This document shows positions 7,336 to 55,485 of a DNA stretch of 64,000 nt, piece after piece. The position numbers were made by a program, and so were the translations under genes. Source of the stretch: Candidatus Woesearchaeota archaeon. GTDB lineage: Archaea > Nanobdellota > Nanobdellia > Woesearchaeales > DSVV01. The notes under the pieces were generated by a model that saw only the letters and a program-made list of their open reading frames with translations, searched no databases and was not told where the DNA came from. Positions within the stretch are counted from its first letter, which is position 1. Each line of letters opens with the position of its first letter. The DNA lies in the NCBI GenBank assembly GCA_018303075.1, contig JAGVYW010000001.1, positions 7,156 through 71,155 of the forward strand, written 5' to 3'.

Positions 7336-7467
7336 TTTAAACAAGACGAATTCCACTGGTCTATTTGACAGGTGGTGGAATTCGTAAGCGTCAAGAACCA
7401 CCCTCAATAGACATTTACAGGAACTTCGTTCATGCCACTGGTCTATTGACCAGTGGTTCTTGACAGT
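7336..7467. repeat. MITE-like repeated element, copy A (about 130 bp)
   Basis: About 65 nt at the 5' end are near-identical to positions 14475-14540, and the 3' ends also match (catgccactggt...tgacag). The element has an internal hairpin acgaattccac/gtggaattcgt and imperfect terminal inverted repeats caagacgaattccactggtc / gaccagtggttcttgac. Confidence 0.5.
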
Positions 7468-24743: not shown

Positions 24744-25598
24744 ATGAATAAAAAAGGTGTTTATTCTTTATTAATTGTAGTACTTGTAGTTGTAATAGGC
24801 GCATTAGCATTACTGAGCATAAACGATACAGGCAATGTACTTACTGGAAGTGTTGTATTAGAGATTGATGAGAAAACATTTTCAGATTGTATGAATGTAG
24901 AAGCAAATAGATTAGGAGAATATGATAATATTGAAACTTACTGCAAATGTAAAGCAGAAGAAAAAAAAGGCTGTAACCTATACTTAAAGAAGAAAAACAG
25001 CAAGATGTGTGAAGCGGGATATCTGCCTGAATTCCAATGTGAAAAAAATTCACGGCAAAAAGATATCCAATATCAGAAATATCAATTTGCAGATTGCAAA
25101 AGTAAAATGGTTCCTGTCAAAGAATGTGACTCTGGTTGTGCTGGAGATATCTGTGCAAATCAAGCGTGCACTGATACAGACGGCGGAAATAAACCATATA
25201 TTGGTGGAACTGTTAAAGGAAACAACAAGTTTGACCAGATGACTGAGTTAAGTGATATTTGCACATCTTCTGATACATTAAGAGAATTCTATTGCAAAAA
25301 TGATGTTATTTCAGATATGTACACATCATGTTCTTTTGGCTGTGACAAAGCAAAAGCAGAATGCATTGTTGCTCCTTGTACTGACACAGATGAAGGTCAA
25401 GCAATCTATAAAGCAGGCAAAACAACAGGTGCAGTATTTGGCGAGTCAATTGATGTAAAGACAGTAAAAGATGATGTATGTGTTAACAGCAAACAATTAA
25501 AAGAATATTATTGCCATTTAACTGGAGCTGTTTCATCAGTAACAGTAGATTGCACATATGGCTGTAATGAAGGAAAGTGTACTGCTCCGACTGGATAA
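24744..25598 (+). CDS. Cys-rich secreted repeat protein (N-terminal TM anchor)
   Basis: A signal/anchor segment is followed by repeated modules containing CTDTDGG / CTDTDEG and many paired Cys. Confidence 0.5.
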   Translation: MNKKGVYSLLIVVLVVVIGALALLSINDTGNVLTGSVVLEIDEKTFSDCMNVEANRLGEYDNIETYCKCKAEEKKGCNLYLKKKNSKMCEAGYLPEFQCEKNSRQKDIQYQKYQFADCKSKMVPVKECDSGCAGDICANQACTDTDGGNKPYIGGTVKGNNKFDQMTELSDICTSSDTLREFYCKNDVISDMYTSCSFGCDKAKAECIVAPCTDTDEGQAIYKAGKTTGAVFGESIDVKTVKDDVCVNSKQLKEYYCHLTGAVSSVTVDCTYGCNEGKCTAPTG

Positions 25599-25628
25599 AA
25601 ACAATTATAAAAATAGAGGTGTATAAGT

Positions 25629-27059
25629 ATGTTAAAAAAGGCAAATAATTATAGTTTAGTTATAGTTGGTATTGTTGCAGTTGTTGCGGTTGTTGCATTG
25701 TTTAAGATGTCAGGCAGTAGTTCTTCGATAGAAGTTGAACAAGAATTTGTAACTGAAGATATAACAGGAAATGCAGTTGCAACAGTAAATAATATGCAAG
25801 TTAAAGGAGCAACTTGTAATGTTTTAAAAAGTGGTTCAATTAATTACACAACTTATGGTAGTAGTTATCCTATACGGGTAAATCCAAAGCAATCTTACTG
25901 TGGTACTTCTGAAATCACTGTACCAAAAACAGATGTAGTAAGTTATTCATATAGATGCCAAAATGGCAAATTATACAATGGAACAGTTGTTTGCTCAAAT
26001 GGTTGTGATTCAGCAACAGGAAAATGTAAAACAACAGTTGTACCATCCTCCTCCTTATCTCAACAGATACAATGTTCTGGATTCAAAAATGCAACAAAAA
26101 CAATGATAAATCTTTCTTTTCCTATTAATACTTTTGATGGTTATACATCATCTGTTATTCAAGAGAAATCTATTATTCAAGAGAATAAGACTTTTTGCAG
26201 TTCTACCATTGGTGGATATGATATAACTAGCCTTTCATGTGAAAATGGAATCTTAAAGAATAAAACTATATCATGTAAGCAATATGATTGTGTTGATGGA
26301 GTGTGTCTTAAACCAAGCTGCAAAGAATACAAAGCTTCAAATGGTACAATGATGGTGAACTATTTAGAAATGGATAAGGGTAAATATTCTTGGGGTTATG
26401 GAAAATCTAAAAACATATCAAAACAAATGTGTAATGGTAATAATTTAATCGTATACTCTTGTTATAAACAAAATAATACTTTACAGAAACAATATATTAA
26501 TTGTGAAAATGGATGTAATCTTAATACAGATGTATGCAACCAAAATTATTGCTCTGAATTCAAAAATGTAACAAATGGAGAAATATATATTAATGCAACT
26601 TTGTATTTGAAGAATTATAATAATAATGATTATTTTACTAGTTATTATGGAACTTATGCAAAGGAAAAACCTTATTGTTTGAATTCAAATGAATCAGCTA
26701 TTTATAGATGTACTAGTGGTCTATTAAATACAGAGAAAATAAAATGTAAAGATGGTTGTAATTGGTCAACAGGAGGGTGTAAAACAACAACAATACAAAC
26801 TTCTTCGCTGGTTGTTCAGGATTTTAGCTGTAATTTAATAAATGAAACCCACTTTAATATGACTTATCCAGATGGAGACATATATCCAACTAAAATAGGT
26901 GAATCTAATTGTGGTAATTATATTTATGGCCAATCAAGTTATCAACCAACAAATGCAACATTAATGTATTCTTATAACTGCAGTGGCAGTAAACTTTATA
27001 ATATAACCCAAAAATGTCCAAAAGGATGTGTTATATCTGCAGGAACATGTAAAGAATAA
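25629..27059 (+). CDS. Cys-rich secreted repeat protein (paralogous architecture)
   Basis: An N-terminal TM anchor is followed by at least six repeated modules of the type Y.C.NG.L.N....C..GC......C, which are Asn-rich. Confidence 0.5.
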   Translation: MLKKANNYSLVIVGIVAVVAVVALFKMSGSSSSIEVEQEFVTEDITGNAVATVNNMQVKGATCNVLKSGSINYTTYGSSYPIRVNPKQSYCGTSEITVPKTDVVSYSYRCQNGKLYNGTVVCSNGCDSATGKCKTTVVPSSSLSQQIQCSGFKNATKTMINLSFPINTFDGYTSSVIQEKSIIQENKTFCSSTIGGYDITSLSCENGILKNKTISCKQYDCVDGVCLKPSCKEYKASNGTMMVNYLEMDKGKYSWGYGKSKNISKQMCNGNNLIVYSCYKQNNTLQKQYINCENGCNLNTDVCNQNYCSEFKNVTNGEIYINATLYLKNYNNNDYFTSYYGTYAKEKPYCLNSNESAIYRCTSGLLNTEKIKCKDGCNWSTGGCKTTTIQTSSLVVQDFSCNLINETHFNMTYPDGDIYPTKIGESNCGNYIYGQSSYQPTNATLMYSYNCSGSKLYNITQKCPKGCVISAGTCKE

Positions 27060-27078: not shown

Positions 27079-28338
27079 TTACAAATTTTTCTTAAGAAAG
27101 AATAAATATGCTGGTAAGACTGTAATGGTATTGCCTTTCTGTTGTATCTTTTCTTGTTTTGCTTTTGAAACAACAACACCTTCTTTACAATTAAATTGCT
27201 GCATAAAAGCAAGTAATCCATTTATCTCAATCTTCCCATATTTTATTTCAATAGGGATAATTTTCTCTTTTGTAATTATAGCATCAACCTCATTCTTGTA
27301 AGAATCTCTCCAAAAAAATTCTGCTTTGAGTTTATTTATAATTACTGATTCAAATACTTTTGATTTTGAATAGTCATCTTCTCTAAATAAAATATCTCCT
27401 GAAATAATAGTTGGATAATATTTTTTTAACTTTCGCTCTATTTTCCTTCTATTTCTTGAATAATTGTATAACTTTCGTAAAAGAAACGATTCTTCAAGAT
27501 ATGAAAGATACAAAGATAATGTTTGCCGTGCAATATTTAATTCTTTTGCAAGATCATCTAATTGAATTATCTGTCCAGGCTCTTCCATAATTATATTTAC
27601 AAGCGATTGTATAAGAGAAATATCTTTAATTGCAAAAAGAATCGGAATATCACTATAAATTGTTTTTTCAATAATATTTTCTCTAATATATTTTTTAATC
27701 AGCTCTTTATCCTGCAGATCGATTATTTCTGGAAATCCTTGCGTAATAATAAATTGCTGAAATAATTGAGAAAGCTCTTTTTCATACAATTTCTCGTTTT
27801 TTATTTTAATTCCTTTAAATGCTAGATACTCTAAAAATGTTAATGGTTCAATCTTAAACTCAAATATTCTTCCAGCAAGCGACTCTTTTGATTTTCTTCT
27901 GATAAACAATGATTCAGAACCAGAAATAATAATCTTAACGTTTTTAGAGTAATTGTCATAAATCCTCTTAATCTGTTCTTCCCAATTCCTTACTTTTTGT
28001 ATTTCATCAAATAAAAATAGATATTTCCCTTGATTTAACTGTTTATTCATCAGTTGCTCATATTCCTTGATAATCTCTCGTATTTCTTTATCTCTAAATT
28101 CGTCAAACGAAAAATACATGATATTCTCAGGATTTATTCCTTGTTTGATATAATCATCAACTATTTTAAACATTAATGTAGTTTTACCTACTCTTCGTAA
28201 GCCAGTCAAGGAAATAATCTGCTTCTGGGTGATACACTTGTTTATTATTGTATAAATCTCTCTATCTTTATACTCTAATTCTAACTTTTCTTTCCACCAT
28301 TTGTTTGATTCTTGAAGTACATCTTTAATTTGCGGCAT
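27079..28338 (-). CDS. AAA+ ATPase, archaeal AAA_14/DUF4143 family
   Basis: The Walker A site is GLRRVGKTT and Walker B is LFLFDE, with a C-terminal DUF4143-like region. Confidence 0.7.
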   Translation of the reverse strand: MPQIKDVLQESNKWWKEKLELEYKDREIYTIINKCITQKQIISLTGLRRVGKTTLMFKIVDDYIKQGINPENIMYFSFDEFRDKEIREIIKEYEQLMNKQLNQGKYLFLFDEIQKVRNWEEQIKRIYDNYSKNVKIIISGSESLFIRRKSKESLAGRIFEFKIEPLTFLEYLAFKGIKIKNEKLYEKELSQLFQQFIITQGFPEIIDLQDKELIKKYIRENIIEKTIYSDIPILFAIKDISLIQSLVNIIMEEPGQIIQLDDLAKELNIARQTLSLYLSYLEESFLLRKLYNYSRNRRKIERKLKKYYPTIISGDILFREDDYSKSKVFESVIINKLKAEFFWRDSYKNEVDAIITKEKIIPIEIKYGKIEINGLLAFMQQFNCKEGVVVSKAKQEKIQQKGNTITVLPAYLFFLKKNL

Positions 28339-41300: not shown

Positions 41301-41666
41301 ATAACAAAAGTAAGTTAAGTTTAGGTATATAAAAGTATCTCTGAAGAATTGTTACTGTACAATTTCATAATTAGTACAGAGAACTTTGCAAAATTCTTTG
41401 CAAAGTTCTTCGTAAACATTCTCAATTATACCTGTATCCTGCATAGTAATATAAGGTATATTACATCCAATTTATTAACGTTGATTCTGACTGTGTAATA
41501 TACTGTATAATACGGTGTTTATTAGTTATATACTGTAAGATACATGTAATGACAGACTCGAGAAAAGAAATCATAAAAACAGACAACACTACCTCGCTGT
41601 GATTACTAAACCGAAACCTTTAAAGACTGCCTCAGTTTTACCTATTAAAAGTTATACATTTTACAA

Positions 41667-42527
41667 TTGAGGTCGCTTAAAATGTCACAAATTGTGCAAA
41701 TAAAATCCCTTGTACTCGCAGCAGTTACAGATAAGATTGGCTATGTAAAGGCTCGAAAAGAGGCCGATAAATTAGCTTCAGAACATGGCTTGAGAGTAGC
41801 TGATACGCCGATGGCAATACAAGCTATGGCTAATCATCCTGAAGTTCGTGAAGCAATAAGGCCAGGATGGATAGACACAATCACTGGCGAATATCATGGC
41901 CAACGAGATGGCGATAGTTCTTATGAAACATGGCATTCCGTAGGTTCTTTGGCAACTGCAAAAGGATTGGAAAAAGTATTTTCCAAAGTTGGAGAATATG
42001 CATTTATGCAGATTGCTGATGACGAATGGATTGCTGTCGGAAAAGGCAATTACAACGGTCAGGATGTTGCAAGAATCCATCTTGATGATGTTAAGAAAGG
42101 CAGTGTGCCTGCAGCAGGAACTCCTTATACTGTTTTTATACGATTGGGCAAGGACAAAGCCAACATCAATGACAGAGGTCAATTAACGTATGATACTTTC
42201 ATGAGTGATGACAGAGTGCTTATGATTGCAGGTTCTCCTGATAACAGGGAAGCACTGGCTAAAATGCTCTTTGGCAGAAAAGAATATGGCGGAGAAGGCT
42301 GGAGCAATATTGGAAGCTATCATAGAATAAATGAAGTTGGCTTTGACGCTCAAGCTAAGGGGCGCCTGGTGTACCTCAACAACAATAGTGTTGGCCTCGT
42401 TGGCGACGGCAACATCAACAACCTTTATGGGCGTTTCGTCGTGGTAGGCGCAGTTGCGCGCGAAAAATCAGCTCCTCTGAGCATCGTGCAGCCAACTCTC
42501 GAGCAGACACTGGCAGTTATCAAATAA
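41667..42527 (+). CDS. hypothetical protein encoded by a GC-rich, compositionally atypical ORF (probably foreign)
   Basis: GC content is visibly higher than in the flanks (for example ggcgcctggtgtacctcaac...gtggtaggcgcagttgcgcgcg). No recognisable family was found. The likely start is MSQIVQ at 41682. Confidence 0.4.
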   Translation: MRSLKMSQIVQIKSLVLAAVTDKIGYVKARKEADKLASEHGLRVADTPMAIQAMANHPEVREAIRPGWIDTITGEYHGQRDGDSSYETWHSVGSLATAKGLEKVFSKVGEYAFMQIADDEWIAVGKGNYNGQDVARIHLDDVKKGSVPAAGTPYTVFIRLGKDKANINDRGQLTYDTFMSDDRVLMIAGSPDNREALAKMLFGRKEYGGEGWSNIGSYHRINEVGFDAQAKGRLVYLNNNSVGLVGDGNINNLYGRFVVVGAVAREKSAPLSIVQPTLEQTLAVIK

Positions 42528-43405
42528 TCCAGACCTGAACAAAGAAGGCATGTTAAAAGCCGTATCTCAGCTGTATAAACATTAAATTACCGATATTTTT
42601 TTATATTCTTCTTGTTATTTCTATTTTTGTCCCAGTTGCTTCGTCAACTTTGATGAAGTTATGAAGTAGCTTGGAACTACACGCCATTTCACTATGGCAA
42701 CATCGCTGTTATAAAATACAACCACGACAGCTAACGTCTGAAGTGGTGGTGGCTTTCAGGAAAGTGAAATGGCTACTATAGTGGCGCCTGGTGTACCTCA
42801 ACAACAATAATAATGGCCTCGTGTCATCTTTAAGTTGCTTTGCTCCTTTTCGAGCCATGATTCCGTTACGTATGGAAATCTTGGTTGCTGCAAGAAGGTC
42901 CTCGCTCACAGTATTGGTCAATTGTGATGCTCTCAAATCAAGTGCCCTGATGGCTTGCTCATTGATTGTACTCTTGACTTTGATTCCTGCAACCTGAGGA
43001 TAATTCTTTTTGATGAAGTTCTCTCCAAGCTTTATTCCTTGCTTGAATTTCTTTTTTGAATCGAGAAAGATTGCTGCAAGAAAGAGGTTCTTTGGATGAA
43101 AATAGTCATAGACTCTAATATTATATTCTTTGCTTTAATAACAGATTCTGTAAAAAGAAGATTAATCCTACAATATAAAGGGAAATTTTTATTTCCATCA
43201 TATGAAATAGACAAACATAAGCAATTATTGTGTCTTTATTGCATGTGCTTTAGCATTTCAAGAAAGCGTAATTTGGTCAGATGATAAAAAATTAAAAGAA
43301 CAGCAGAAAATAACTATTCTCAACACAGAAGAGATTATGGATATTATTTTCTAATTCTTTTTTTTAAACAAAAACTTTATATAACACCTCAGCATATATT
43401 TTATC

Positions 43406-43825
43406 ATGGATGAAGCAATAATTGAACAAGAAGTTTCTTTTGAAGAAACATCAGAGATTATACAATATGTAGGTTTAGATCAATTAGATGATAAAGAAAG
43501 AGAAACACTAAACAAATTATCAACAGAATATCACCCTAAAGTAAAGCGTTTATTGCATAACAATACTTCTTTAACAATACATATTAAAAAACTTAGAAAT
43601 AATTCCAAAAACGAAAAAAAGCGGCATAAATATAGCATTACAGTAAAGACAGTATCTCCAACAAAACCATTCCGAGCAGCATCTAATGATTGGAACTTAA
43701 ACACAGCAATACATGATGCATTTATGAATCTAGAAAAAGAATTAGAAAGAGTATACAAGAAAAATGATATTCATAAGAATCATATAAAGTTCTCAACAAG
43801 TAATAAAACTAAAAAGAAGAAATGA
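43406..43825 (+). CDS. hypothetical protein
   Basis: A 139-aa charged protein with no recognised motifs. Confidence 0.3.
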   Translation: MDEAIIEQEVSFEETSEIIQYVGLDQLDDKERETLNKLSTEYHPKVKRLLHNNTSLTIHIKKLRNNSKNEKKRHKYSITVKTVSPTKPFRAASNDWNLNTAIHDAFMNLEKELERVYKKNDIHKNHIKFSTSNKTKKKK

Positions 43826-43834
43826 TAATGAATT

Positions 43835-46183
43835 CTATTTTTCAGAATTGTCTTCTTTGTTATCACTTTCTTCCTTATTACTATCTTCTTGCTTAGGTTC
43901 ATTTTCAGGTTCTCCTTCTTGATCATCTCTTTCCTGATTTTCTGGTTTTTTATCTTCTTCTCTTTCCATTTCTCTGTTATCTCTTTCTCTTCCATCACCA
44001 ATATGTTCTCGATCCTGTTCAAGTTGTTCTATCTCTTTTTGCAATCGTTGTACATCAGTAAAATCTGGAGCTTCTGGACTTGCTTGTTTTGCATCATGGA
44101 GCAACTGTTTTATCTCTTCAGGACTTAAGCTTTCAAAAGAACGGTCACCAATATTGATTTTTCCTTCTTTCTGCATCCTTCTGAGATCCTCCATGAAATT
44201 GAACTGTTGCTGTCCATGCTGTTGCTGACCGTAGTTTTCTCCAATAGGGAATCCTTGTAGCATTGTTGGAATCTCAACTTTTCTTATGACGCCGCCAATA
44301 GCTTCTTCCCTCTTATTTTCATACATCTCTTGATACTTTGCTTGTCCAGTTCCTTCTGTCATCTTTTGCGTGATTATTTCTTTACATGCATCCATTCCAA
44401 TAAATTCGCCATCTTTTATGCATTCTTGGGGAGTTCTTCCTTGACCACCTGGACTTCCACTGCCAAATTCAGGGAAATCACCTTCACCAAATTCTCCTCC
44501 AGAAAATCCTTGACCTTGTCCTTCTCCTTGCTGATATTTATCTTTCATAATTGTTTCACATGCTTCTTGACCTATAAATTCTCCATCCTTCATACATTCT
44601 TGGGGAGTTCTCCCTTGACCTTCACCACCTTCACTACCCATGCCCTGTCCTTGACCTTTAAACTTTTCTTCGCATGCTTCTCGACCAATAAATTTATCAC
44701 CATCAAAACATTCTTTTGGTATTTTTCCTGCATCACGCATTTTTCCAATGCATTCTTTTTCACCAATTGGCTTTCCACCTTCAATGCATTCTTCAGGGAT
44801 ATTTCCTGTTGCCATCATCTTTTCTTCGCATGCTTCCCTGCCTATGAAATCGTCACCATCAAAACATTCTTTTGGTATTTTCCCTGCTTCTTTCATCTTT
44901 TCCAGACATGCGTTTTCTCCAATAGGTCTTCCTTTTTCAACACATTCTTCTGGAATATCACCTGAATCCATTATCTTCTGTTCGCATTCCTCTCGCCCAA
45001 TAAACTTGCCATTTTCCATGCATTGCTTTGGCATTTTCCCAGAATCAACCATTTTCTTGGTGCATTGTTTCTCTCCGATAAACTTGCCATCTGCAACACA
45101 TTCTTCAGGCATTTCACCAGATTCAATCATCTTTTTTGTGCATTGTTTCTCTCCGATAAACTTGCCATCTTTCATACATTCTTCAGGAGGTTCGCCGTGT
45201 TTTTCAATCATTATCTTCTTGCAATCTTCTCTTGTTTTGACACCTGCATCTTTGCATTCTTGTGGTGCAAACTTGTCAAACATCATATCTTCTGACTCAT
45301 CCATAATCTTTCTAAATTCTTCTCGCATAAATTCTGGTAATAGTTCTTCACCTGCATATTCTCCTTCAGAATCAAGCTCTTGGCAGGCTTCTTCGTTTTC
45401 TTCAAACTCACAAAGTATAATCAATTTTTTTTCTTTTTCACAATATGTCTTCATCTTCTGCACAGGAATATCTTGGCATTGACAATTCTGTATATCTTGG
45501 ACGCATGATCTCAATACTTCTACAAATTTATCTGTTGCTTGCCCCTGCATCTTTCTTATATCTGTTTCAATATATTCTTTTAACCAAGCTGGAGCTGTAT
45601 CAGGATTGCATTTTTCTTCTTGCTCCATGAGTGTATAATCGATGCTTGCCAATTGTTCACAGAGGGAGACAATTTTGCCTGCTAATTCTCCTGCAATCTT
45701 ATTTTTTTCTACCTGGCTGGAAAGAGAATCATATAACTCATGGATCTTTTCTTCATCAGGCAATTGTTCTTGCAATTGTTTAAGAATGTCTTGTATCTCT
45801 TTGCTGTCAGCTTCAACCTGTCTTTTTAATTCTGGAGAGATCTCATCTTCAATCAATGCTGAGATATTCTTTGCATTTACTAATGCAACTGTCAAGGCAG
45901 CTGTTTTGTTCTCGGCAGCCATCTGCTGCGCTTCAGCTGCTTTTTCCTTGACAATCTCTAATGCATATTCCACCTTTTCATCTCCATCTTTTGTTGCCAG
46001 TTTTACCTCTTCAACAACCTCATCAATAAAATAAAATGGACTATCTGGAGTAATTCCTGCTTTTGGCGCTTCGATGACAACTTCCTCTTCCTCTACTGCA
46101 GCAGCAAGAATGCCGAGCATAAAAATACTGATTAATGATAGAAATAATAAACTTACTATCTGTCTTACTCTTTTTTTTTGCAT
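43835..46183 (-). CDS. large secreted Cys-rich protein with at least eight tandem ~24-aa repeats (DGKFIGEKQCTKKM..SG.MPEEC)
   Basis: An N-terminal signal peptide precedes an acidic coiled region and then tandem repeats, which are also visible at the DNA level around 44430-45300. The C-terminus is an acidic Glu/Asp/Lys tail. Confidence 0.6.
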   Translation of the reverse strand: MQKKRVRQIVSLLFLSLISIFMLGILAAAVEEEEVVIEAPKAGITPDSPFYFIDEVVEEVKLATKDGDEKVEYALEIVKEKAAEAQQMAAENKTAALTVALVNAKNISALIEDEISPELKRQVEADSKEIQDILKQLQEQLPDEEKIHELYDSLSSQVEKNKIAGELAGKIVSLCEQLASIDYTLMEQEEKCNPDTAPAWLKEYIETDIRKMQGQATDKFVEVLRSCVQDIQNCQCQDIPVQKMKTYCEKEKKLIILCEFEENEEACQELDSEGEYAGEELLPEFMREEFRKIMDESEDMMFDKFAPQECKDAGVKTREDCKKIMIEKHGEPPEECMKDGKFIGEKQCTKKMIESGEMPEECVADGKFIGEKQCTKKMVDSGKMPKQCMENGKFIGREECEQKIMDSGDIPEECVEKGRPIGENACLEKMKEAGKIPKECFDGDDFIGREACEEKMMATGNIPEECIEGGKPIGEKECIGKMRDAGKIPKECFDGDKFIGREACEEKFKGQGQGMGSEGGEGQGRTPQECMKDGEFIGQEACETIMKDKYQQGEGQGQGFSGGEFGEGDFPEFGSGSPGGQGRTPQECIKDGEFIGMDACKEIITQKMTEGTGQAKYQEMYENKREEAIGGVIRKVEIPTMLQGFPIGENYGQQQHGQQQFNFMEDLRRMQKEGKINIGDRSFESLSPEEIKQLLHDAKQASPEAPDFTDVQRLQKEIEQLEQDREHIGDGRERDNREMEREEDKKPENQERDDQEGEPENEPKQEDSNKEESDNKEDNSEK

Positions 46184-46229
46184 AAGAATCCCCTCTTCTT
46201 GGAATTATAACATCTATCTGTTTATAATC

Positions 46230-47429
46230 TTATTCTTTTAGGCTTTGCTCTTTTAATATTGTATCCTCTTTCTTAAGCTTATACTGTTGATACCATGTAT
46301 AGCAATCATGATCGTACATTTTTTCATACCACTTGCATTGCAGAGCAATACATTGATGATTCTCAAGCTTTTCATCCTCTTTACAAATAATCTTTTCGCA
46401 TTGATGGTTCTTAACAATCTCATCAAATTCACATTCAAGTTTCTGACAGCTATGGTTGATTGTAATCTCATCATCCATACAATTCAGACTTTCGCAGGAA
46501 TGATCTTTTATGATCTCATTATCTAAACATTCAAATTTCTGGCAGCTATTATTGTTGCAGATCTCATCATTGCCACATTCATCATCCCCGCAGCATTGAT
46601 ATTTCTTACATTGATGGGATTCAAGAGGATCAATATATTCGCATGTATTGCAATCTAATTTTTGGCAGATGCTGTTTTCACAGATCTCATCAGCCATGCA
46701 TTCATTGTTTTTTTCGCACAATGGAAGTTCACTGCATTCTTTAGCAATTGAAAATCCTGATTTTTCACATTGGTAGTAGACCATAAATTCCTTGATCTTT
46801 TTGTCAGTATCCCATTTTAATGTAAATCTATTGCCATCATTCTTTCGTTTCATTGTGATTGTGAAATTTTCAAATCCTTCGCTTGTAACAACAGGAGTGT
46901 GCCGTATCACTCTATTTGTATCTAGCTTTGCATTGTAATTCAGCGAATAAGGATTAGCAAAACGGAACTCTTTATTTTTGCTGATCGAAAGGTCATTGAT
47001 AAGAAATTTGCCTACAAATGTGTCATTTCTCATATAACAGGATTCAACAAATGATTGATTCAGCATTCTGCAGCTAAAACTAAATATTGGGCATTTGGCA
47101 GTATACCTTTTCTTTCCAATCTTGATGTAATATGAGGTTGGTTCACCTGCAACAAAGATGCCATCTTGTGATTCATATGTATAATAGGTTACTTTTTTCT
47201 TACCTTCTGTTTTCTCTCTGCTACTCCATGCTCCTTTGACAGGAAAATAATTATCTTCTGCTTTAACTAGCCTAGCTGTAACATCATTTCGTATCAATGA
47301 ATCATCAATCTTCAGCGAGCCATCGTCCTTGCATTCGATTTTTGTTGCTGAAACAAATGAGAGGGAAAGAAGGCTGCAAAAGACTAACACCAAAATGATT
47401 CTATTAGAACGTCTGTTCAATGATGCCAT
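46230..47429 (-). CDS. secreted protein with C-terminal Cys-rich repeats (C.x.EI...H.C..L.C modules)
   Basis: A signal peptide is followed by a beta-rich domain and then about seven short Cys repeats (CQKLDC, CQKFEC, CESLNC, CQKLEC...). Confidence 0.55.
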   Translation of the reverse strand: MASLNRRSNRIILVLVFCSLLSLSFVSATKIECKDDGSLKIDDSLIRNDVTARLVKAEDNYFPVKGAWSSREKTEGKKKVTYYTYESQDGIFVAGEPTSYYIKIGKKRYTAKCPIFSFSCRMLNQSFVESCYMRNDTFVGKFLINDLSISKNKEFRFANPYSLNYNAKLDTNRVIRHTPVVTSEGFENFTITMKRKNDGNRFTLKWDTDKKIKEFMVYYQCEKSGFSIAKECSELPLCEKNNECMADEICENSICQKLDCNTCEYIDPLESHQCKKYQCCGDDECGNDEICNNNSCQKFECLDNEIIKDHSCESLNCMDDEITINHSCQKLECEFDEIVKNHQCEKIICKEDEKLENHQCIALQCKWYEKMYDHDCYTWYQQYKLKKEDTILKEQSLKE

Positions 47430-47465
47430 TTTCTTGTTTTTATGTGGTTAAGGAATATAAATGTT

Positions 47466-47694: not shown

Positions 47695-48219
47695 ATGCCA
47701 ACAAAAAAAGCATCTATCCATATCATTCTTACAGGTGGAACAATTGATTCGTATTGGAATGGCACCATTGATACTGCTACGCCATTAAAAGAATCTTCTA
47801 TTCCTCTATTTATCTAATCGTTAAAACTCTATGATAAGGTAATGTTCACAACTATTTGTATGAAAGACAGTAGACAATTAGTACAATCTGACAGAAAAAA
47901 GATTTTGATTGCAACTGAACAAAGTCCATGCAAAAAGATAATTATTACGCATGGAACATATACAATACCCGATACAGCTAAGTTTCTGCAGACTAATTTA
48001 CAGCGAAAAGACCAAACAATTATCTTGACAGGTTCAATGATTCCATTAACTGGATTTTCTCCATCAGATGCTCCTTTTAATTTAGGTTTTTCATTTGCAA
48101 AACTGCCAGAATTATCTGCTGGAGTTTACATCTGCATGAACGGAAGAATCTTCACAGCAGATGAAACTATTAAGCTCTTATTTGAAGGAAGGTTTGCGTC
48201 TGTGTTTGGGGAAAAGTGA
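47695..48219 (+). pseudogene. L-asparaginase N-terminal-domain gene carrying an in-frame TAA stop (codon 41)
   Basis: Asparaginase motifs occur in order and with correct spacing: ILTGGTIDS, IIITHGTYT (the HGTDT equivalent), and ILTGSMIPLTGFSPSDAPFNLGFSFA. A single TAA at 47815-47817 interrupts an otherwise continuous frame. No C-terminal asparaginase domain is present. Confidence 0.5.
48127..48219 (+). repeat. ~90-bp direct repeat, left copy (3' end of the asparaginase-like gene)
   Basis: About 90% identical to 48933-49025. The two copies flank the MNT-HEPN cassette. Confidence 0.7.
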
Positions 48220-48260
48220 TCTTAATAACATTTATATATCTGCAATGCATATTATATTTT

Positions 48261-48554
48261 ATGGTGCGAGACAGACTGCAAATACTAAAACTAAAAAAGA
48301 AGATTCTTCCAGTCTTAAGAAAATATCATATTAAAAGAGCGGGTATTTTTGGAAGCTATGCACGTGGAGAACAAAAGAAAAAGAGCGATGTAGATATCCT
48401 AATACTGCCTCCACATGGGCTTGGTCTTGGTTTTATAAGAATTGAATCTGAATTAGAAAAAGTTTTAGATACAAAAGTTGACTTACTTTCATATAATGGG
48501 ATTAATCCTCGCCTAAAAAATAAAATTTTAAAAGATGAGGTCAGAATACTTTGA
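48261..48554 (+). CDS. minimal nucleotidyltransferase (MntA-like antitoxin)
   Basis: The nucleotidyltransferase motif is GIFGSYARGEQKKKSDVDIL, in a protein of about 100 aa. Confidence 0.75.
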   Translation: MVRDRLQILKLKKKILPVLRKYHIKRAGIFGSYARGEQKKKSDVDILILPPHGLGLGFIRIESELEKVLDTKVDLLSYNGINPRLKNKILKDEVRIL

Positions 48555-48898
48555 ATAGAGACTCAATTATCTTCTTAGAGCATATGCTTGATGCAATTAA
48601 TAATATTGACAAGTTTATGTTAACTGTTACTAAACAAGAATTCTTTACTAATGTTGAGAAACATAGCGCAGTAGTTCGCCAACTTGAGATTCTCGGTGAA
48701 GCTGCTAAGAACCTAAAACATTCTTTTATATCGAAATATCAATCTATTCCTTGGAAAGAAATAATCGGTTTGAGAGATAAAGTTATACATCATTATTTTG
48801 GACTTGATATGGAGATAATATTTGATATCGTAAACAAAGAATTACCTCCTTTGAAAAAAAATCTTCAAAAGATAATCAAAATAGAGAATGAGAAATAA
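48551..48898 (+). CDS. HEPN-domain protein (HepT-like toxin, DUF86)
   Basis: The R-x4-HxY HEPN motif is RDKVIHHY. The start overlaps the MNT stop (ATGA), which is the typical MNT-HEPN pair organisation. Confidence 0.75.
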   Translation: MNRDSIIFLEHMLDAINNIDKFMLTVTKQEFFTNVEKHSAVVRQLEILGEAAKNLKHSFISKYQSIPWKEIIGLRDKVIHHYFGLDMEIIFDIVNKELPPLKKNLQKIIKIENEK

Positions 48899-49391: not shown

Positions 49392-52300
49392 ATGCAACAA
49401 AAAAAAGACTGGGATTTTGAAGTGATTAAAGAAGGAGAAGAAAATATATTGTACATATATTGTGAAGGGGTAAGCATATCGCCTTTAGTTGAAGATTCAA
49501 GTATTGTGATGATTAGAACAATCGATATTCTTTCTCAAGTATCCGGTATAAGCAAGATAATATTCAATCAAAAAAGAGATTATGAGTATGATTTCAAACA
49601 AACACAGATTCTTGCAGAGATTGCAGAACTTTATAAAAAACTAATAAAAGAAAAGAATTATTTCAATTATCCTACTGCTGGTAATTACGATAATAGGATT
49701 ATCAATCAGAAATATAATGAATTGCGAGAAATTATATTTAAACATATGAAAGGAGATCCTATTGGCGCATATATTGAATTAACAAGAATAATGCGAAGAG
49801 AAAAGATTGATCTTGAAAAAGTAGTTGAACAGATACAACAGGATATTACAAAAAGGTATATAGCAATAATAAGCTACGTTACAAGCCTTCTTGAAAAGAC
49901 AAGAATGCTAATACTTGCAAAACCATACATTGCTGGCTATAAAATTGGAGATAGAAGCGTTTACAAATACATTTTCACTCCGTCAATAAAGCCAGATTTT
50001 ATGTTTACAAAATTAATGGCTAATTTTCCAAGCAATGCTGAAGAGATTGATTCATACATAATTGGCGACGATACAGATGTTACTATCTTTCGTCTGCCTG
50101 ATTCAACAATAATACTCTATCATATTGTACCGCCTGAATTCAAGCTTCCTGAAGAAAAATATGAATTATTAGATATGGCAAGAAAAATTCTTGCAGAACA
50201 CAAGCCAAAACAAGAAGAGTTTACAGATCCAGAAAGGATGCGCGAGGTATTTTCTAATATTGGCAAGGACTTGCTTGAAGAGATTGCAACATCGAAGAAT
50301 ATTATGTTGAGAGAGAAAGAGCTGCAAAAATTAACGCAAATCTTAGTGCGATACACTATTGGTTTTGGGTTGATTGAAGTGTTATTGCAGGATGATGATA
50401 TGCAAGATATCTCAATCAACAGTCCATTGGGAAAGATACCTATATTCATTGTGCATGGAAAATATGGCGATTGCACAACAAATATTATCCCGACAAAATC
50501 AGAATCTGAAAGCTGGGCGTCAAAATTGAGATTAATCTCTGCCCGTCCATTAGACGAAGCAAATCCAATATTAGATACAGAATTAGAACTGCCTGGTGCA
50601 TCTACAAGAGTTTCTGTAATTACACGGCCATTAAATCCAACAGGACTAGCATTTTCTTTTAGAAAACATAGAGATAAACCCTGGACGTTACCATTGTTCA
50701 TTAAATTCAAAATGTTGAATCCTATTGCAGCTGGTTTAATCAGTTTCCTTGTTGATGGAACGCGGACAATTTTAATTGCAGGAACAAGAAGTGCAGGAAA
50801 ATCATCTTTTTTGACAGGGGTGCTTGTTGAGATTATGAGAAAGTATAGGATAATAACAGTAGAAGACAGCGTTGCAGGTGATTCTGAGATATTAATCAGA
50901 AATAATAATAAATGGCAAAGAACAACAATAGGGAATCTTATTGATAAACAGCTAGAGAAACAAGTTTCATTACAGACATTTTCTGGACATGAGGTTGCAG
51001 AAAATACTGAAGATATTGAAATTTTTGCAATGAACAAAAAAGGAAAGATCGTAGTCACAAAACCTTCTGTATTTATTCGACATAAAGTAACAAAACCAAT
51101 CTATGAGATAAAAACAAGAACAGGAAAGATATTGAAAGTAACAGGAGATCATTCTCTATTTGCAATTGGAGAAAACGCAGAGATTTCAGAGGCAAAAGTG
51201 AATAATCTAAACATCGGAAACAAAATAGCTGTAGCAAGAAAACTACCGTTAATCAATCAAGAAAAAGAATTTATGAACATATTATACGATGTAATTGAAA
51301 GAACAGATTCATTTATTACAGGTTTAACAACAAACTATTGCTTAGAACATCATTTTAATGATATATTATCATTTGGTTCAGCAAGAAATGTTAGCTCTGC
51401 AACAATAAAAAGTTGGAGAAGAAACAAAGTTCTTCCTGGATATATTGCTAAAGATCTTATGACACTCCATCAAACACTTGACTTTTCAACAGATAAATTC
51501 AGAATCAATAATTCACAGAAATTGATATCATTAAAGATACAATTGAATGAAGATTTTATGACATTTATTGGATTATGGATTGCAGATGGGTGTTATGATA
51601 AAAAATCAATTATCATATCCTGCAATGATCCAGAAGACAGAGCAGTTGTAGAAAAAGTTGGAAAAAGCTTTGGAATACAATACAAGATGCATAGTGATGG
51701 CATTTCATATATGCTCAATTCCAAAACATTGAAAGTGGTATTGCAGGATATTCTTTCATGCACTGGGGATTCATACACTAAAAGAGTTCCTGGATGGATA
51801 TACACACTCTCCCCGCAGCAAATTGCTGCATTTTTACGAGGAGTATTTACTGGCGATGGCTGCGCTACAGACAAAGAAATAGTAATCAATCTTTGTAGCA
51901 GGCATCTTCTCTCTGATATGCAAACATTACTCTTGATTTTCAATATTAGTCTGAGAATAGGGAATTTTATTCCAAGAGATAAAACAATACGAGCTGCTAT
52001 CTCTGGAAACGAATATCTAACAAGTTTTGCAAAATATATTGGATTTCTACAACCATATAAAAACAATGTTCTTTCAAGACTTTGTGAGAAAAAGATAACT
52101 CATGATACAACAGATACATTTGATTTAAGAATAAATACAAAAATAGAACTTGCTAACTTATTTGGCAAGAGATTCAATAAAAATGATTACATAAACAGAA
52201 ATAACAGCATAGGAAGAAGAAAACTTACATCATTATTGCAAGTACAATCGCAAACACAGATGCTAGAGTTACAGCATCAAATACTAGAAAACTTAAAGCA

Positions 52301-53234
52301 ATTGCTTGAATCAGATATATATTGGGATGAGATAATTGAGATAGAAAAAATGGAGAATTTTGAAGGATATGTCTATGACCTTTCTGTACCTGATTATGAA
52401 AGCTTTATCTGTAGAAATATTATAGCACACAATACGTTAGAGTTGCCTAACAAAGCTTTTCGTGATCTTGGATTTAACATACAATCAATGAAAGTTGCAA
52501 GCGCATTGGCCCATGATTCAACAGAAGTTTCTGCTGAAATTGGAATCAGAACAACACTTCGTCTAGGAGATTCAGCATTGATTGTAGGAGAAGTTAGAAG
52601 TAAAGAAGCAGTTGCATTGTACGAAGCAATGCGTGTTGGCGCTGCTGCAAATGTTGTTGCAGGAACAATTCACGGCGATTCTCCTTATGGGGTATATGAC
52701 AGAGTTGTAAATGATATTGGCATTCCCAAGACATCATTCAAAGCAACAGACATCATCATTGTTACAAATCCAATAAAATCAGCAGATGGTATGCATAAAT
52801 ACAAGAGAGTTACACAGATAACAGAAGTGCGAAAGCGCTGGGAAAATGATCCAATGGAGGAAAAAGCATTTGTTGATCTGATGAAATATGAGCCAAAAAC
52901 AGATGAATTATTGATCACTCCTGACCTAAAAAATGGCGATTCAGAAATTCTCAAAGCAATTGCAGGAAATGTCAAGGAATTTGCTGGCAGCTGGGATGCA
53001 GTATGGGATAATATCCTTTTACGTGGAACAATTAAAGAGAATATAGTGAAGATGGCAGAACAAACAAAAAATGACGAATTATTGGAGGCTCCATTTGTGA
53101 CAAAAGCTAATGACATGTTCCACATAATATCTGAAAAAGTAAAAGAAGAAGTTGGTTTTTTAGACAGTAAAAAGATACTCTTTCAATGGAATGATTGGTT
53201 GAGTAGAGAAGTAAGAAAGACGCAGAAAAGTTGA
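49392..53234 (+). CDS. type II/IV secretion-family ATPase (FlaI/GspE/VirB11-like) containing a large intein
   Basis: The Walker A site is AGTRSAGKSS. The Asp box RIITVED|TLEL is split by the intein. Downstream motifs are LIVGEVRSKEA and TIHGDSP (the His box). The extein is about 758 aa with a long N-terminal domain. Confidence 0.85.
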   Translation: MQQKKDWDFEVIKEGEENILYIYCEGVSISPLVEDSSIVMIRTIDILSQVSGISKIIFNQKRDYEYDFKQTQILAEIAELYKKLIKEKNYFNYPTAGNYDNRIINQKYNELREIIFKHMKGDPIGAYIELTRIMRREKIDLEKVVEQIQQDITKRYIAIISYVTSLLEKTRMLILAKPYIAGYKIGDRSVYKYIFTPSIKPDFMFTKLMANFPSNAEEIDSYIIGDDTDVTIFRLPDSTIILYHIVPPEFKLPEEKYELLDMARKILAEHKPKQEEFTDPERMREVFSNIGKDLLEEIATSKNIMLREKELQKLTQILVRYTIGFGLIEVLLQDDDMQDISINSPLGKIPIFIVHGKYGDCTTNIIPTKSESESWASKLRLISARPLDEANPILDTELELPGASTRVSVITRPLNPTGLAFSFRKHRDKPWTLPLFIKFKMLNPIAAGLISFLVDGTRTILIAGTRSAGKSSFLTGVLVEIMRKYRIITVEDSVAGDSEILIRNNNKWQRTTIGNLIDKQLEKQVSLQTFSGHEVAENTEDIEIFAMNKKGKIVVTKPSVFIRHKVTKPIYEIKTRTGKILKVTGDHSLFAIGENAEISEAKVNNLNIGNKIAVARKLPLINQEKEFMNILYDVIERTDSFITGLTTNYCLEHHFNDILSFGSARNVSSATIKSWRRNKVLPGYIAKDLMTLHQTLDFSTDKFRINNSQKLISLKIQLNEDFMTFIGLWIADGCYDKKSIIISCNDPEDRAVVEKVGKSFGIQYKMHSDGISYMLNSKTLKVVLQDILSCTGDSYTKRVPGWIYTLSPQQIAAFLRGVFTGDGCATDKEIVINLCSRHLLSDMQTLLLIFNISLRIGNFIPRDKTIRAAISGNEYLTSFAKYIGFLQPYKNNVLSRLCEKKITHDTTDTFDLRINTKIELANLFGKRFNKNDYINRNNSIGRRKLTSLLQVQSQTQMLELQHQILENLKQLLESDIYWDEIIEIEKMENFEGYVYDLSVPDYESFICRNIIAHNTLELPNKAFRDLGFNIQSMKVASALAHDSTEVSAEIGIRTTLRLGDSALIVGEVRSKEAVALYEAMRVGAAANVVAGTIHGDSPYGVYDRVVNDIGIPKTSFKATDIIIVTNPIKSADGMHKYKRVTQITEVRKRWENDPMEEKAFVDLMKYEPKTDELLITPDLKNGDSEILKAIAGNVKEFAGSWDAVWDNILLRGTIKENIVKMAEQTKNDELLEAPFVTKANDMFHIISEKVKEEVGFLDSKKILFQWNDWLSREVRKTQKS
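50868..52433 (+). mobile_element. intein (522 aa) with a LAGLIDADG homing-endonuclease domain, inserted in the Asp box of the secretion ATPase
   Basis: Block A begins with Ser: SVAGDSEILI. The LAGLIDADG motifs are FIGLWIADG and FLRGVFTGDG. The C-terminal block is VYDLSVPDYESFICRNIIAHN followed by the +1 Thr. Removing the intein restores RIITVEDTLELP. Confidence 0.8.
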
Positions 53235-53271: not shown

Positions 53272-55485
53272 ATGATAATGGCAGACAAAGAAGAAGAAAT
53301 GAGAAGATTAATGGAAAAGTATAAGAAGAAGATGAATCAGCAGTTTGGAGAATCTTCTTTTGAGGAATATACACCTGAAAAGATAACAAGTGTTGAGTAT
53401 GAAAAATTCAAGAAAGAGCGTATGCCAAAGATATTGACATGGTATGAAAAAACATGTAATTTCTGCGGTAATATCTTAAAATTAAAACCAGGAAAAGAAG
53501 ATGAAGCAGATATAATTGAATCATTAAGAATTGCGCACATTGAAACAACACCAGAGGGCGTAACTCGTTTTTCTATACTTATTCCATTCTTATTAATTGT
53601 AGGTGGTGTATTACTAAGCATTGTAATACCTGGAATCTTTGGCGGCAGTCCAAGCACATTTTTTATAATGATATTTATTTTTATTGGATTAGTTATGATG
53701 TTTTCTCTAAAATCATTGCCGCGATTTTTTGCTGATCATTACAGATTAGAAGCAAGCAATGAGATGGTTTTGTCCATATTTTATATTGTAACATATATGA
53801 GACACACATCAAACCTAGAGCTTGCTGTTCGTTTTGCATCTGATCATTTAACAGGACAATTAGCATTAGATTTAAAGAAAGTACTATGGGATGTTGAAAC
53901 AGAGAAATATGGCAATATTAAAGAATCAATTGATAATTACTTAGAAACTTGGAGAAAGTGGAACATGGAATATATTGAAGCATTCCATTTAATTGAATCT
54001 TCATTATACGAAACATCTGAACCTAGAAGAATTGAGATGTTAGAAAAAAGCCTTAATTTAATTCTTAGTGAAACATATGAAAAGATGCTGCATTATGCAC
54101 ATAATCTAAAATCTCCAATTACAATGCTTCACATGTTAGGAATAATCCTGCCAGTCTTAGGATTAGTTATGCTGCCATTAATTGTAAGTTTCATGGGTAA
54201 TGTAAAATGGTATTATATAGCAACTATCTATAACATTATTCTTCCAATTGGTGTATATTATCTTGGAAAAAATATACTCTCACAACGTCCAACTGGCTAT
54301 GGTGATACTGATGTCAGCGATGAAGTACCAAGCTTAAAAAAATATAAGAATATCAATTTTAAGTTAGGAGCTGTTGAATATTCAATAAATCCTGCGTATA
54401 TGTGTATAGGTATTGGAATACTATTTTTACTTATTGCATTATTACCTATAATGCTGCATGTAGTAGGTTTTCCAGATCTTGGTTTTGGTGAAGAGGATAA
54501 AGGAACAGGTTGTATGAAAACATTTTGTTTATTGGATTATAGAGAAGTAACAACTGCAGAAGAAACATTTATTGTTGGTCCATTTGGATTTATTGCCTCA
54601 ATTCTTAGTTTGTTCTTTCCATTAGCAATTGCTTTCTCACTTGGATTGTACTACAAGATGAGCAGTCAAAATATTATCAAAATTCGAGAAGATACAAAAA
54701 AGCTTGAGAATGAATTTGCATCTGGTTTATTTCAGTTAGGCAACAGATTAGGAGATGGAATTCCAGCTGAAAGTGCATTTGGAAAGGTTGCAGAAGTTAT
54801 GCAGAATAATGAAGCAGGAAAATTTTTTTCAATAGTTAATCAAAATATCCTAAAATTAGGGATGGATGTAGAAACAGCAATATTTAACAGTAAAACTGGA
54901 GCAATTGTTTCATTTCCATCACAAATGATTAATAGTTCTATGAAAGTATTAATTCAATCAGTAGAAAAAGGTCCAAAGATTGCTGCACAATCTCTAGTAA
55001 ATGTTTCTAGGTATATTAAAGAAATGCATCGTGTTAATGAACGATTAAAAGATCTTTTGGCAGATGTTATTTCTTCAATGAAGTCACAAATAAGTATTAT
55101 GACACCAGCAATCGCTGGAATAGTTGTAGGCATTACATCAATGATTGTTAATATATTGGGAAAACTTGGTCCAATGTTAAAAGCAAAACAAGCAGAACAA
55201 TCAGGAGTAGCCGGGGCATTCCAAGGGGTTGATTTCTTTAATGTTGGCATACCTGTATATTACTTTCAACTTGTTGTAGGAATCTATGTTGTACAAATAA
55301 TCTATATCCTAACTATTTTAGTAAATGGAATTGAAAATGGCACTGACAAACTGCAAGAAAATTACTTACTAGGAAAAAACCTTATAAGAAGCACAATAAT
55401 CTATGTAGGAATATCATTAGTAGTAATGATTGCATTCAACTTAATAGCTAATGCAGTCATTGGTGGAGTGTTGGGTGCGGGATAG
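53272..55485 (+). CDS. FlaJ/TadC-like polytopic membrane platform protein of an archaeal type IV pilus/archaellum-like system
   Basis: The 737-aa protein has two blocks of transmembrane helices separated by cytoplasmic domains, and it lies immediately downstream of the FlaI-like ATPase, as in flaI-flaJ and tadA-tadBC pairs. Confidence 0.6.
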   Translation: MIMADKEEEMRRLMEKYKKKMNQQFGESSFEEYTPEKITSVEYEKFKKERMPKILTWYEKTCNFCGNILKLKPGKEDEADIIESLRIAHIETTPEGVTRFSILIPFLLIVGGVLLSIVIPGIFGGSPSTFFIMIFIFIGLVMMFSLKSLPRFFADHYRLEASNEMVLSIFYIVTYMRHTSNLELAVRFASDHLTGQLALDLKKVLWDVETEKYGNIKESIDNYLETWRKWNMEYIEAFHLIESSLYETSEPRRIEMLEKSLNLILSETYEKMLHYAHNLKSPITMLHMLGIILPVLGLVMLPLIVSFMGNVKWYYIATIYNIILPIGVYYLGKNILSQRPTGYGDTDVSDEVPSLKKYKNINFKLGAVEYSINPAYMCIGIGILFLLIALLPIMLHVVGFPDLGFGEEDKGTGCMKTFCLLDYREVTTAEETFIVGPFGFIASILSLFFPLAIAFSLGLYYKMSSQNIIKIREDTKKLENEFASGLFQLGNRLGDGIPAESAFGKVAEVMQNNEAGKFFSIVNQNILKLGMDVETAIFNSKTGAIVSFPSQMINSSMKVLIQSVEKGPKIAAQSLVNVSRYIKEMHRVNERLKDLLADVISSMKSQISIMTPAIAGIVVGITSMIVNILGKLGPMLKAKQAEQSGVAGAFQGVDFFNVGIPVYYFQLVVGIYVVQIIYILTILVNGIENGTDKLQENYLLGKNLIRSTIIYVGISLVVMIAFNLIANAVIGGVLGAG

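Follow-up and report, generated by a model that had tools for sequence, protein, structure and literature searches.

The locus described here raises the question of whether two neighbouring genes for large, cysteine-rich repeat proteins encode partners that work together outside the cell. The genes lie in a 64,000-nucleotide (nt) stretch of a Candidatus Woesearchaeota archaeon genome (assembly GCA_018303075.1, contig JAGVYW010000001.1, positions 7,156 to 71,155 of the forward strand), hereafter called the window; coordinates are those of the window unless another contig is named. Gene A (43835..46183) encodes an acidic DUF5667 protein of 782 amino acids (aa) with a repeat rod that may be stapled by its cysteines. 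Gene B (46230..47429), the first gene of the pair, encodes a probably secreted Cys-rich protein of 399 aa with homologs at 38–79% identity. Both open reading frames (ORFs) lie on the reverse strand, as do all their features given below, and were found exactly where an initial annotation of the window had placed them. The best explanation, which we hold to be slightly better than an even bet, is that B–A is a conserved cassette of Woesearchaeota-type DPANN archaea encoding two Sec-exported, disulfide-stapled proteins that would act together at the cell surface.

Distribution and Conservation of the Gene Pair

In a set of 5.8 billion proteins, A had 33 detectable relatives, the named ones from Woesearchaeota, Pacearchaeota or Nanoarchaeota, and B had nine, the named ones from Woesearchaeota. 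A scan of the GTDB species representatives with the trimmed A alignment yielded 20 species-level loci, all of them from DPANN archaea save one metagenome-assembled genome (MAG) titled Methanosarcinales, which we suspect to be mis-binned. The window had been taken for that of an episymbiotic archaeon, and the relatives mark it as a DPANN archaeon: with that one MAG excepted, the named ones are Woesearchaeota, Pacearchaeota, Nanoarchaeota or Nanobdellati. No relatives of A or B were found in IMG/VR viral contigs, and neither protein matched PHROGs. Foldseek searches of the PDB with models of both proteins returned no hit at E<0.05, and profile searches of PDB sequences with A and B returned nothing meaningful.

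Pairing was scored with phmmer by comparing the window proteins with all ORFs of the fetched loci. In the metagenome loci L001, L002, L003/4, L005/6, L009, and L011, B immediately preceded A and shared its strand, and so it did in L012, L014, L016, L017, L018, and L028 among the species-level loci. In L015, B was located about 2 kb upstream of A, and in L023, L024, L025, L026, and L031 it adjoined A divergently. In total, 12 of these 20 loci showed B–A linkage, with identity as low as about 30–38%; two of the remaining eight held too little upstream sequence to judge. The other neighbours of the pair were entirely different in L009 and L024.

Two genes can also stay together through inherited synteny alone, and A and B might be unrelated surface proteins without a joint function. 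Passive synteny does exist at this locus, as the closer clade also keeps the HPF-like gene in place downstream of A, and A occurs without an adjacent B in Pacearchaeota-type and long-form (900–1000 aa) homologs. The adjacency of A and B, however, outlasts the inversion of B in the five divergent loci and the divergence to about 30–38% identity, with all other neighbours replaced. Because it survives these changes, the adjacency argues for A and B being a functionally linked pair, and we regard synteny without joint function as unlikely.

The intergenic gap between B and A is 46 nt in the window. A Shine-Dalgarno-like GAGGGG (46190..46195) precedes the start of A by 6 nt, and a TATA-box-like TTTATAT (47455..47461) precedes the start of B by about 29 nt, a candidate archaeal promoter that would give a near-leaderless transcript. 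B and A are probably carried on one transcript.

A further alternative makes A and B components or substrates of a neighbouring type IV pilus-like machine. The window encodes a T2SSE-family (PilB/FlaI-like) ATPase (49392–53234, forward strand), which is split by a LAGLIDADG-containing intein (1280 aa vs. about 763 aa in intein-less orthologs), and a 737-aa polytopic membrane protein without a Pfam hit (53272–55485, forward strand). In the closer Woesearchaeota clade the ATPase and a polytopic protein of about 730 aa were located 2–6 kb from B–A, divergent from it in some loci and co-directional in others: the window, L001/L028, L002, L003/L012, L005, L011, L014, and L018. The ATPase was absent, however, from the 8-kb flanks of the distant pairs (L009, L015, L023–L026, and L031), and its linkage may be clade-level synteny. 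Moreover, the N-termini of A and B appear to be Sec-type and not of the class III type of pilins and archaellins. Since the ATPase linkage is lost in distant loci and the N-termini are of this type, a pilus connection was rated as minor, and we think it quite improbable.

Anatomy of Protein A

Mature A is acidic, with an isoelectric point of about 4.5. Its structure was modelled with AlphaFold2 (AF2) from a 27-sequence alignment, giving a mean predicted local distance difference test score (pLDDT) of 72. The protein opens with a signal-peptide-like N-terminus (residues 1–29; 46097..46183), recognized by hydropathy scan and sequence: KKRVR, a 21-aa hydrophobic core, and LAAA/VEEE, with the slash marking the putative cleavage site. 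The DUF5667 domain (PF18915) follows at residues 43–144 (45752..46057) and is the sole Pfam match, covering the full-length model (profile 1–99 of 99; E=9.5e-14; 52.1 bits vs. a cut-off of 27). AF2 predicted helices here, with block-mean pLDDT of 70–94 that exceeds 90 from residue 70 or so onward. Precomputed annotation assigns the domain to most A homologs, and in this A resembles other DUF5667 proteins. DUF5667 is itself without known function, however, and was not mentioned in the literature searched in full text; the repeats and the Cys-containing helical domain of A lie beyond it.

That helical domain (residues 145–305; 45269..45751; block-mean pLDDT 74–95) contains eight cysteines that are invariant in the family alignment (175, 192, 227, 234, 236, 248, 258, and 267). 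Taken together, residues 50–305 or thereabouts were predicted to be helical at block-mean pLDDT of 70–95, exceeding 90 for residues 70–180. Beyond the repeat array described below, a C-terminal module (residues 663–743; 43955..44197) comprises short helices and a long helix at 709–743 in the AF2 model, and a similar segment was seen by eye in longer homologs. The protein ends in an acidic low-complexity tail (residues 744–782; 43838..43954) with pLDDT below 50. The tail was predicted to be disordered, as were the G/Q-rich inserts of the array and residues 626–685. There was no NCBIfam match for A, and the helical Cys domain, the 26-aa repeats, and the C-terminal module fall outside every Pfam and NCBIfam model.

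The repeat array occupies residues 306–612 (44348..45268) and was delimited by Tandem Repeats Finder (TRF), a unit hidden Markov model (HMM), Cys spacing, and AF2. It consists of ten units of the order P-x-E-C, beta-hairpin, C, alpha-helix. The initial annotation had reported at least eight near-identical 24-aa repeats of the type DGKFIGEKQCTKKMxxSGxMPEEC. The motif, DGKFIGEKQC..KM..SG..PEEC, is real and can be detected as tandem repeats in the DNA, as had been noted; the period is 26 aa (78 nt), and the units are not near-identical. TRF found a 78-nt period at 44942–45187 (3.2 copies, score 262, 76% matches) and a 156-nt double unit at 44663–45004 (2.2 copies, score 388, 75% matches). Regular units shared 35–73% aa identity and 56–79% nt identity in pairwise comparison, and only units 1 and 2 reached 73% and 79%, respectively.

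Cutting A after each P-x-E/Q-C gave seven 26-aa segments at residues 311–492, of which the first (residues 311–336) is degenerate; an eighth unit begins at residue 493 and runs into a G/Q-rich insert. Seven units stand at exact 26-aa spacing (residues 337–518; 44630–45187), and the last two units of the array are set apart by G/Q-rich inserts as segments of 38 and 58 aa. By Cys spacing the array holds nine Cys-x11-Cys units and one degenerate Cys-x10-Cys unit, and the unit HMM detected nine. More distant A homologs contained three to nine units by HMM count.

In the AF2 model each repeat makes a short turn at PxEC, followed by a two-stranded beta-hairpin (x-D-G-K-F) and an 11-residue helix, at pLDDT of about 75–85. 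The interval from the PxEC cysteine to the helix cysteine is always 11 residues, while the next interval takes every insert and measures 13, 25, or 45 residues. Because the 11-residue interval is fixed and both length variation and G/Q inserts are confined to the other, we infer that one disulfide closes each A hairpin. Mature A contains 28 cysteines; in the family alignment most of the alignable repeat cysteines are invariant or nearly so, and the final four differ according to the number of units.

Many of the long-form A homologs (P0004, P0019–P0021, P0028, and P0033, together with the A homolog at 7452–10142 of L024) end in the motif (I/V)TG..(I/V) and an amphipathic or hydrophobic tail. 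This ending may be a sorting or processing signal; the A protein of the window does not have the motif. Small pilin-like proteins of another locus, L035, carry a comparable ITGQA motif after their signal anchor.

Anatomy of Protein B and Its Module Family

Protein B had no Pfam match at E<=1 and no NCBIfam match. A Kyte-Doolittle scan and the sequence point to a signal-peptide-like N-terminus (residues 1–28; 47346..47429) composed of RRSNR, a hydrophobic core, and FVSA/TK. The N-terminal domain that follows (residues 29–220; 46770..47345) is predicted to be beta-rich and has four invariant cysteines and an invariant N-x-S sequon at N124. The sequon was present in all 19 aligned homologs, and B is probably N-glycosylated. 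The Cys-rich region (residues 221–378; 46296..46769) contains three variant and five canonical 16-aa beta-hairpin modules (C..DE....NH.C..L.), each with a conserved Glu and His beside its cysteines. Repeat modules had been expected here from the sequence, and they are present, but the proposed count of seven CxxxxEIxxxHxCxxLxC modules did not hold. B ends in a charged helix (residues 379–399; 46233..46295; helix 379–398 in the AF2 model) at the place where sampled relatives have a transmembrane anchor.

AF2 modelled residues 240–378 of B, approximately, as regular two-strand hairpins at pLDDT 75–89, the C-terminal hairpin stack standing at about 85, with the C-terminal helix behind them. The structure prediction that had been proposed as a check for disulfide-rich modules returned regular hairpin modules in both proteins; their disulfide pairing is proposed from the cysteine spacing. 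All 28 cysteines of mature B were kept in 18–19 of 19 sequences, while a 29th, in the signal peptide, was not conserved. The Cys pattern of A and B cannot be chance. In 5000 shuffles, C-x10-C-x4-C occurred on average 0.13 times in B (eight observed); in A, C-x11-C averaged 0.95 (ten observed) and C-x11-C-x13-C averaged 0.03 with a maximum of two (six observed).

A word-indexed profile search with the B alignment found no new members, and an index-free search was needed. Among 1.84 billion cluster representatives, the index-free search with the B profile detected 499 clusters at the E<=1e-3 threshold, of which 184 also passed E<=1e-10 and 68 passed E<=1e-30, so that the module family numbers about 500 clusters as counted at 50% identity. 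Roughly a dozen clusters matched B full-length. Most of the listed hits were proteins of 330–460 aa that matched in the repeat region alone (profile about 220–373). A cluster look-up of 10 module relatives returned only metagenome singletons, one of them labelled just "bacterium."

Five sampled relatives (P0042, P0054, P0057, P0060, and P0091) were built alike: behind an apparent signal peptide comes a beta-rich head of 140 aa that contains sequons, then the repeat region, and finally a C-terminal transmembrane helix followed by a basic tail. Like B they have a signal-peptide-like N-terminus, a beta-rich head, the repeat module, and its CxxC..H.C..Y.CC lead-in, matching the B profile with E down to 1e-84. 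They differ from B at the C-terminus, where B has a short charged helix in place of their membrane helix and basic tail, and their heads are not homologous to that of B, as only profile positions of about 220–373 match. Among other relatives, a large polytopic membrane domain follows in P0149, and P0188 has a NosD beta-helix. Since the sampled relatives show a head, then repeats, then a membrane anchor, the arrangement suggests that the stacked hairpins form an extracellular stalk close to the membrane and that B is an anchor-less version of it.

The neighbourhood of one relative, P0042, was examined (L035). It was a cluster of other exported, sequon-rich, surface-type proteins, with no A-like protein beside P0042 by eye.

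The B module resembles EGF-like repeats, such as Teneurin EGF (PF25024), in its dense, regularly spaced cysteines within short beta-hairpin modules and in forming what would be rigid extracellular stalks. Membership was rejected: B had no Pfam match, and the 10 relatives tested had none for the module beyond sub-threshold EGF_TEN hits (P0183, 34.4 bits; P0149, 20.2 bits; cut-off 65).

Probable Export and Cysteine Chemistry

The initial annotation had called both proteins secreted, and by heuristic assessment both look exported: each has a positively charged N-terminus, a single N-terminal hydrophobic segment in the hydropathy scan, and a small-residue site behind it. N-termini of homologs carry the classic cleavage motifs VFA/QD, TTA/QE, and ASA/QA. 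Sec export of A and B is the reading that these features favour. The conserved cysteines of the mature proteins are even in number (28 each) and have a fixed spacing per repeat, as in disulfide-rich repeat proteins.

The cysteines, along with the Glu and His of B, could instead bind metals, in which case A and B would be metal-binding or redox proteins, possibly intracellular, and not disulfide-stapled surface proteins. A Glu and a His do accompany the cysteines in every 16-aa unit of B, and the source environments are probably reducing. Four observations speak against metal binding: the apparent export signals of A, B, and their homologs; the near absence of CxxC motifs, with cysteines even in number and spaced to fit one bridge per hairpin; the conserved glycosylation sequon; and the relatives with C-terminal membrane anchors, which keep the repeats on the non-basic side. 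We consider metal binding very improbable.

Stability of the Repeat Array

The repeats of A had been described as prone to expansion, contraction, and assembly collapse, and this part of the initial annotation failed. Array length was equal in three assemblies: gene A measured 2349 nt in the window and in two assemblies independent of it, L011 (ENA ERZ27254754) and L034 (ERZ27254745). An A ortholog at 77% identity from a groundwater Woesearchaeota MAG (P0002) had the same nine HMM-detectable units in the same order. Each unit of the window protein was closest to the P0002 unit in the same position (76–95% over a 21-aa core), closer than to its own paralogs, except for unit 2. Unit 2 looks homogenized with unit 1, to which it is 81% identical over the core, more than to its positional ortholog. 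Because the units of P0002 are positionally orthologous and gene length is the same in the assemblies, the array is old, was in place before these species diverged, and evolves slowly.

It is extremely improbable that the array is an artefact of assembly or a contingency locus evolving fast, with a copy number that shifts by slippage or recombination: detectable DNA repeats, the homogenized pair of units 1 and 2, and eight substitutions within 25 nt of unit 6 that distinguish two strains are outweighed by units no more than 56–79% identical in DNA, by the constant gene length, and by a unit order kept in P0002. The marks of such a locus, units that are nearly the same in DNA and a copy number that differs among close strains, were not seen, and copy number varied only between distant lineages. 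The array is real, old, and stable, and the concern that it might be artefactual or unstable is refuted.

Between the window and L011, gene B showed no differences, a 1245-nt flank one, and gene A nine. Eight of the nine cluster in a 25-nt stretch of the unit 6 hairpin, a strain-level hotspot at A codons 437–445 (44849..44875). The window reads KECFDGDDF and L011 reads EECFDDNKF; the window allele is ancestral, being common to P0002 and L034. The hotspot changes were not adenine-specific, and no donor unit fully accounted for them.

Rib/alpha-like and Sdr B-repeat adhesins display near-identical tandem repeats on the bacterial surface. A resembles them as an apparently exported protein with a repeat rod whose unit number varies between lineages. 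It differs in that its units are diverged (56–79% nt identity), positionally orthologous between species, and invariant in number between strains, and in lacking both a wall-anchor motif and any similarity to these adhesins in sequence or fold.

A Nearby Diversity-Generating Retroelement

About 1 kb past the 3′ end of gene A, the segment at 41682–42822 can be recognized by its sequence features as a decayed diversity-generating retroelement (DGR). The Rfam motif RT-16 was found there at full length (42630–42781, 84 bits); it has been grouped with reverse-transcriptase-associated motifs, some of which were speculated to belong to retrons or DGRs (PMC5737381). The putative target is a 281-aa ORF (41682–42527) with an Asn-rich C-terminal variable region (VR) from about 42358, and RT-16 lies between the VR and a 43-nt template-like copy (42780–42822). 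In the near-identical contig L032 from another sample, a full template repeat (TR) of about 90 nt stands in the same place (7099–7190 of L032); where it differs from the window VR, the template base is mostly an adenine. No window ORF of >=110 aa with a YxDD-type motif, as expected of a reverse transcriptase, was found. Because the 281-aa target protein has one and the same sequence in four contigs, which represent three samples, the DGR is probably inactive here.

A or B as the target of the DGR was rejected, since the TR-like/VR pair in 41400–43450 involved only ORF 41682–42527 and the A hotspot is not adenine-specific; the search for TR-like sequence covered that segment, which lies outside genes A and B. 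L034 matched the window at 99.98% from 41528 to 46183, and its first 899 nt matched nothing in the window, which points to a rearrangement specific to the strain, with its breakpoint just upstream of the target gene. Three contigs (L011, L032, and L033) end in or near the RT-16/TR region.

Genes Surrounding the Pair

Just downstream of A and convergent with it, the window encodes a 139-aa HPF/YfiA-like protein (43406–43825, forward strand; Ribosomal_S30AE 26.7 bits vs. a cut-off of 23.7; NCBIfam below cut-off). A bacterial-type HPF/YfiA is unusual for an archaeon. The same convergent arrangement was seen in L001–L006, L011, L012, L014, L016, L018, and L028. On the other side of the pair, a 125-aa ORF (47842–48219, forward strand) gave a partial match to an asparaginase N-terminal domain (profile 50–161 of 193); its equivalent in L001 has 174 aa, and the ORF may be a truncated gene or have a mis-called start. 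An overlapping MNT/Polbeta nucleotidyltransferase and HepT-like (HEPN) pair, a typical toxin-antitoxin module, follows at 48216–48898 (forward strand) and was also present in L011. A thioredoxin gene was located near B–A in L003–L006.

The window is a chromosomal stretch with housekeeping genes: family B DNA polymerase, alanyl-tRNA synthetase, glutamine synthetase, CCA-adding enzyme, an OB-fold protein resembling single-stranded DNA-binding protein, and a class II aminoacyl-tRNA synthetase. GC content ranged from 27 to 39% across 2-kb windows and was 30–34% in most.

Two further features named alongside the pair in the initial annotation, another Cys-rich pair at 24744–27059 and a 542-aa protein at 19636–21264, both exist and are without a Pfam domain. 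The Cys-rich pair consists of proteins of 284 aa (22 cysteines) and 476 aa (30 cysteines), each with an N-terminal hydrophobic segment. It was rejected as a relative of A or B, as its CTDTDGG modules look different by eye, a judgement made without alignment. The 542-aa protein was rejected as a paralog of A, with an hhalign probability of 0.6% and no profile similarity. The modules of this second, exported-looking pair follow the pattern C.DTDGG...C..GC...C. The pair, noted under 24744–27059 (forward strand) and 27079–28338 (reverse strand), is adjoined by an AAA_14/DUF4143 ATPase, and an AAA_14 ATPase also flanks B–A in L003–L006.

Discussion

In the explanation we prefer, B–A encodes two exported surface proteins that act as a pair. 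A would be an elongated acidic protein comprising a signal peptide, a helical head, a ten-bead rod, a coiled-coil-like helix, and a disordered tail. Each bead would be a beta-hairpin held between two cysteines at 11-residue spacing and followed by an alpha-helix, and the number of beads, three to nine across lineages by HMM count, would set the length of the rod. B would be a beta-rich head on a stack of eight 16-aa beta-hairpins. Having lost the anchor of its relatives and being found always beside A, B may be retained at the surface by binding A.

Several points weigh against this explanation. Six to eight of the 20 species-level A loci have no B nearby, so that A can function without an adjacent B. 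The 21-residue hydrophobic core of A could be an uncleaved anchor, and the head of B (residues 29–220) was predicted as beta-rich at pLDDT below 50. The source organisms come from anoxic groundwater, where the formation of extracellular disulfides is not guaranteed. In the searches described above, A and B were without a structural or sequence relative of known function, and neither is tied to a host cell or ligand.

A bolder form of the explanation is possible, if doubtful. A and B may be the two subunits of an extracellular structure that is specific to DPANN archaea and new to the literature, a host-contact or envelope fibre, built from two new cystine-stapled mini-folds: the 26-aa hairpin-helix bead and the 16-aa hairpin rung. 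The rung module would then define a large family, of about 500 clusters, of membrane-proximal archaeal surface-receptor stalks without a Pfam model or solved structure.

It was already known that DPANN archaea encode many unannotated exported proteins, and Castelle et al. (2021; PMC8204110) described many unannotated, lineage-specific DPANN families predicted to be membrane-bound or extracellular. A and B resemble those families in coming from the same organisms and in being unannotated, lineage-specific, and predicted to be exported. As far as its bulk treatment of the families goes, that study does not single out the A–B pair, its repeat anatomy, or the A–B linkage. New here are the conserved A–B pairing and two repeat modules without a Pfam model or solved structure.

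DPANN archaea are thought to rely on physical contact with a host, and their surface proteins are almost all uncharacterized; a structural or adhesive surface role for A and B, which the initial annotation had put forward as candidates for cell-cell attachment, is plausible for an organism of such a lifestyle and agrees with the predicted location of the DPANN families in PMC8204110. The value of the finding is descriptive. The 16-aa hairpin module is a candidate domain-family definition for hundreds of unannotated metagenome proteins, and a conserved pair with a defined repeat anatomy is a concrete target for metaproteomics, cryo-electron tomography labelling, and structural work.

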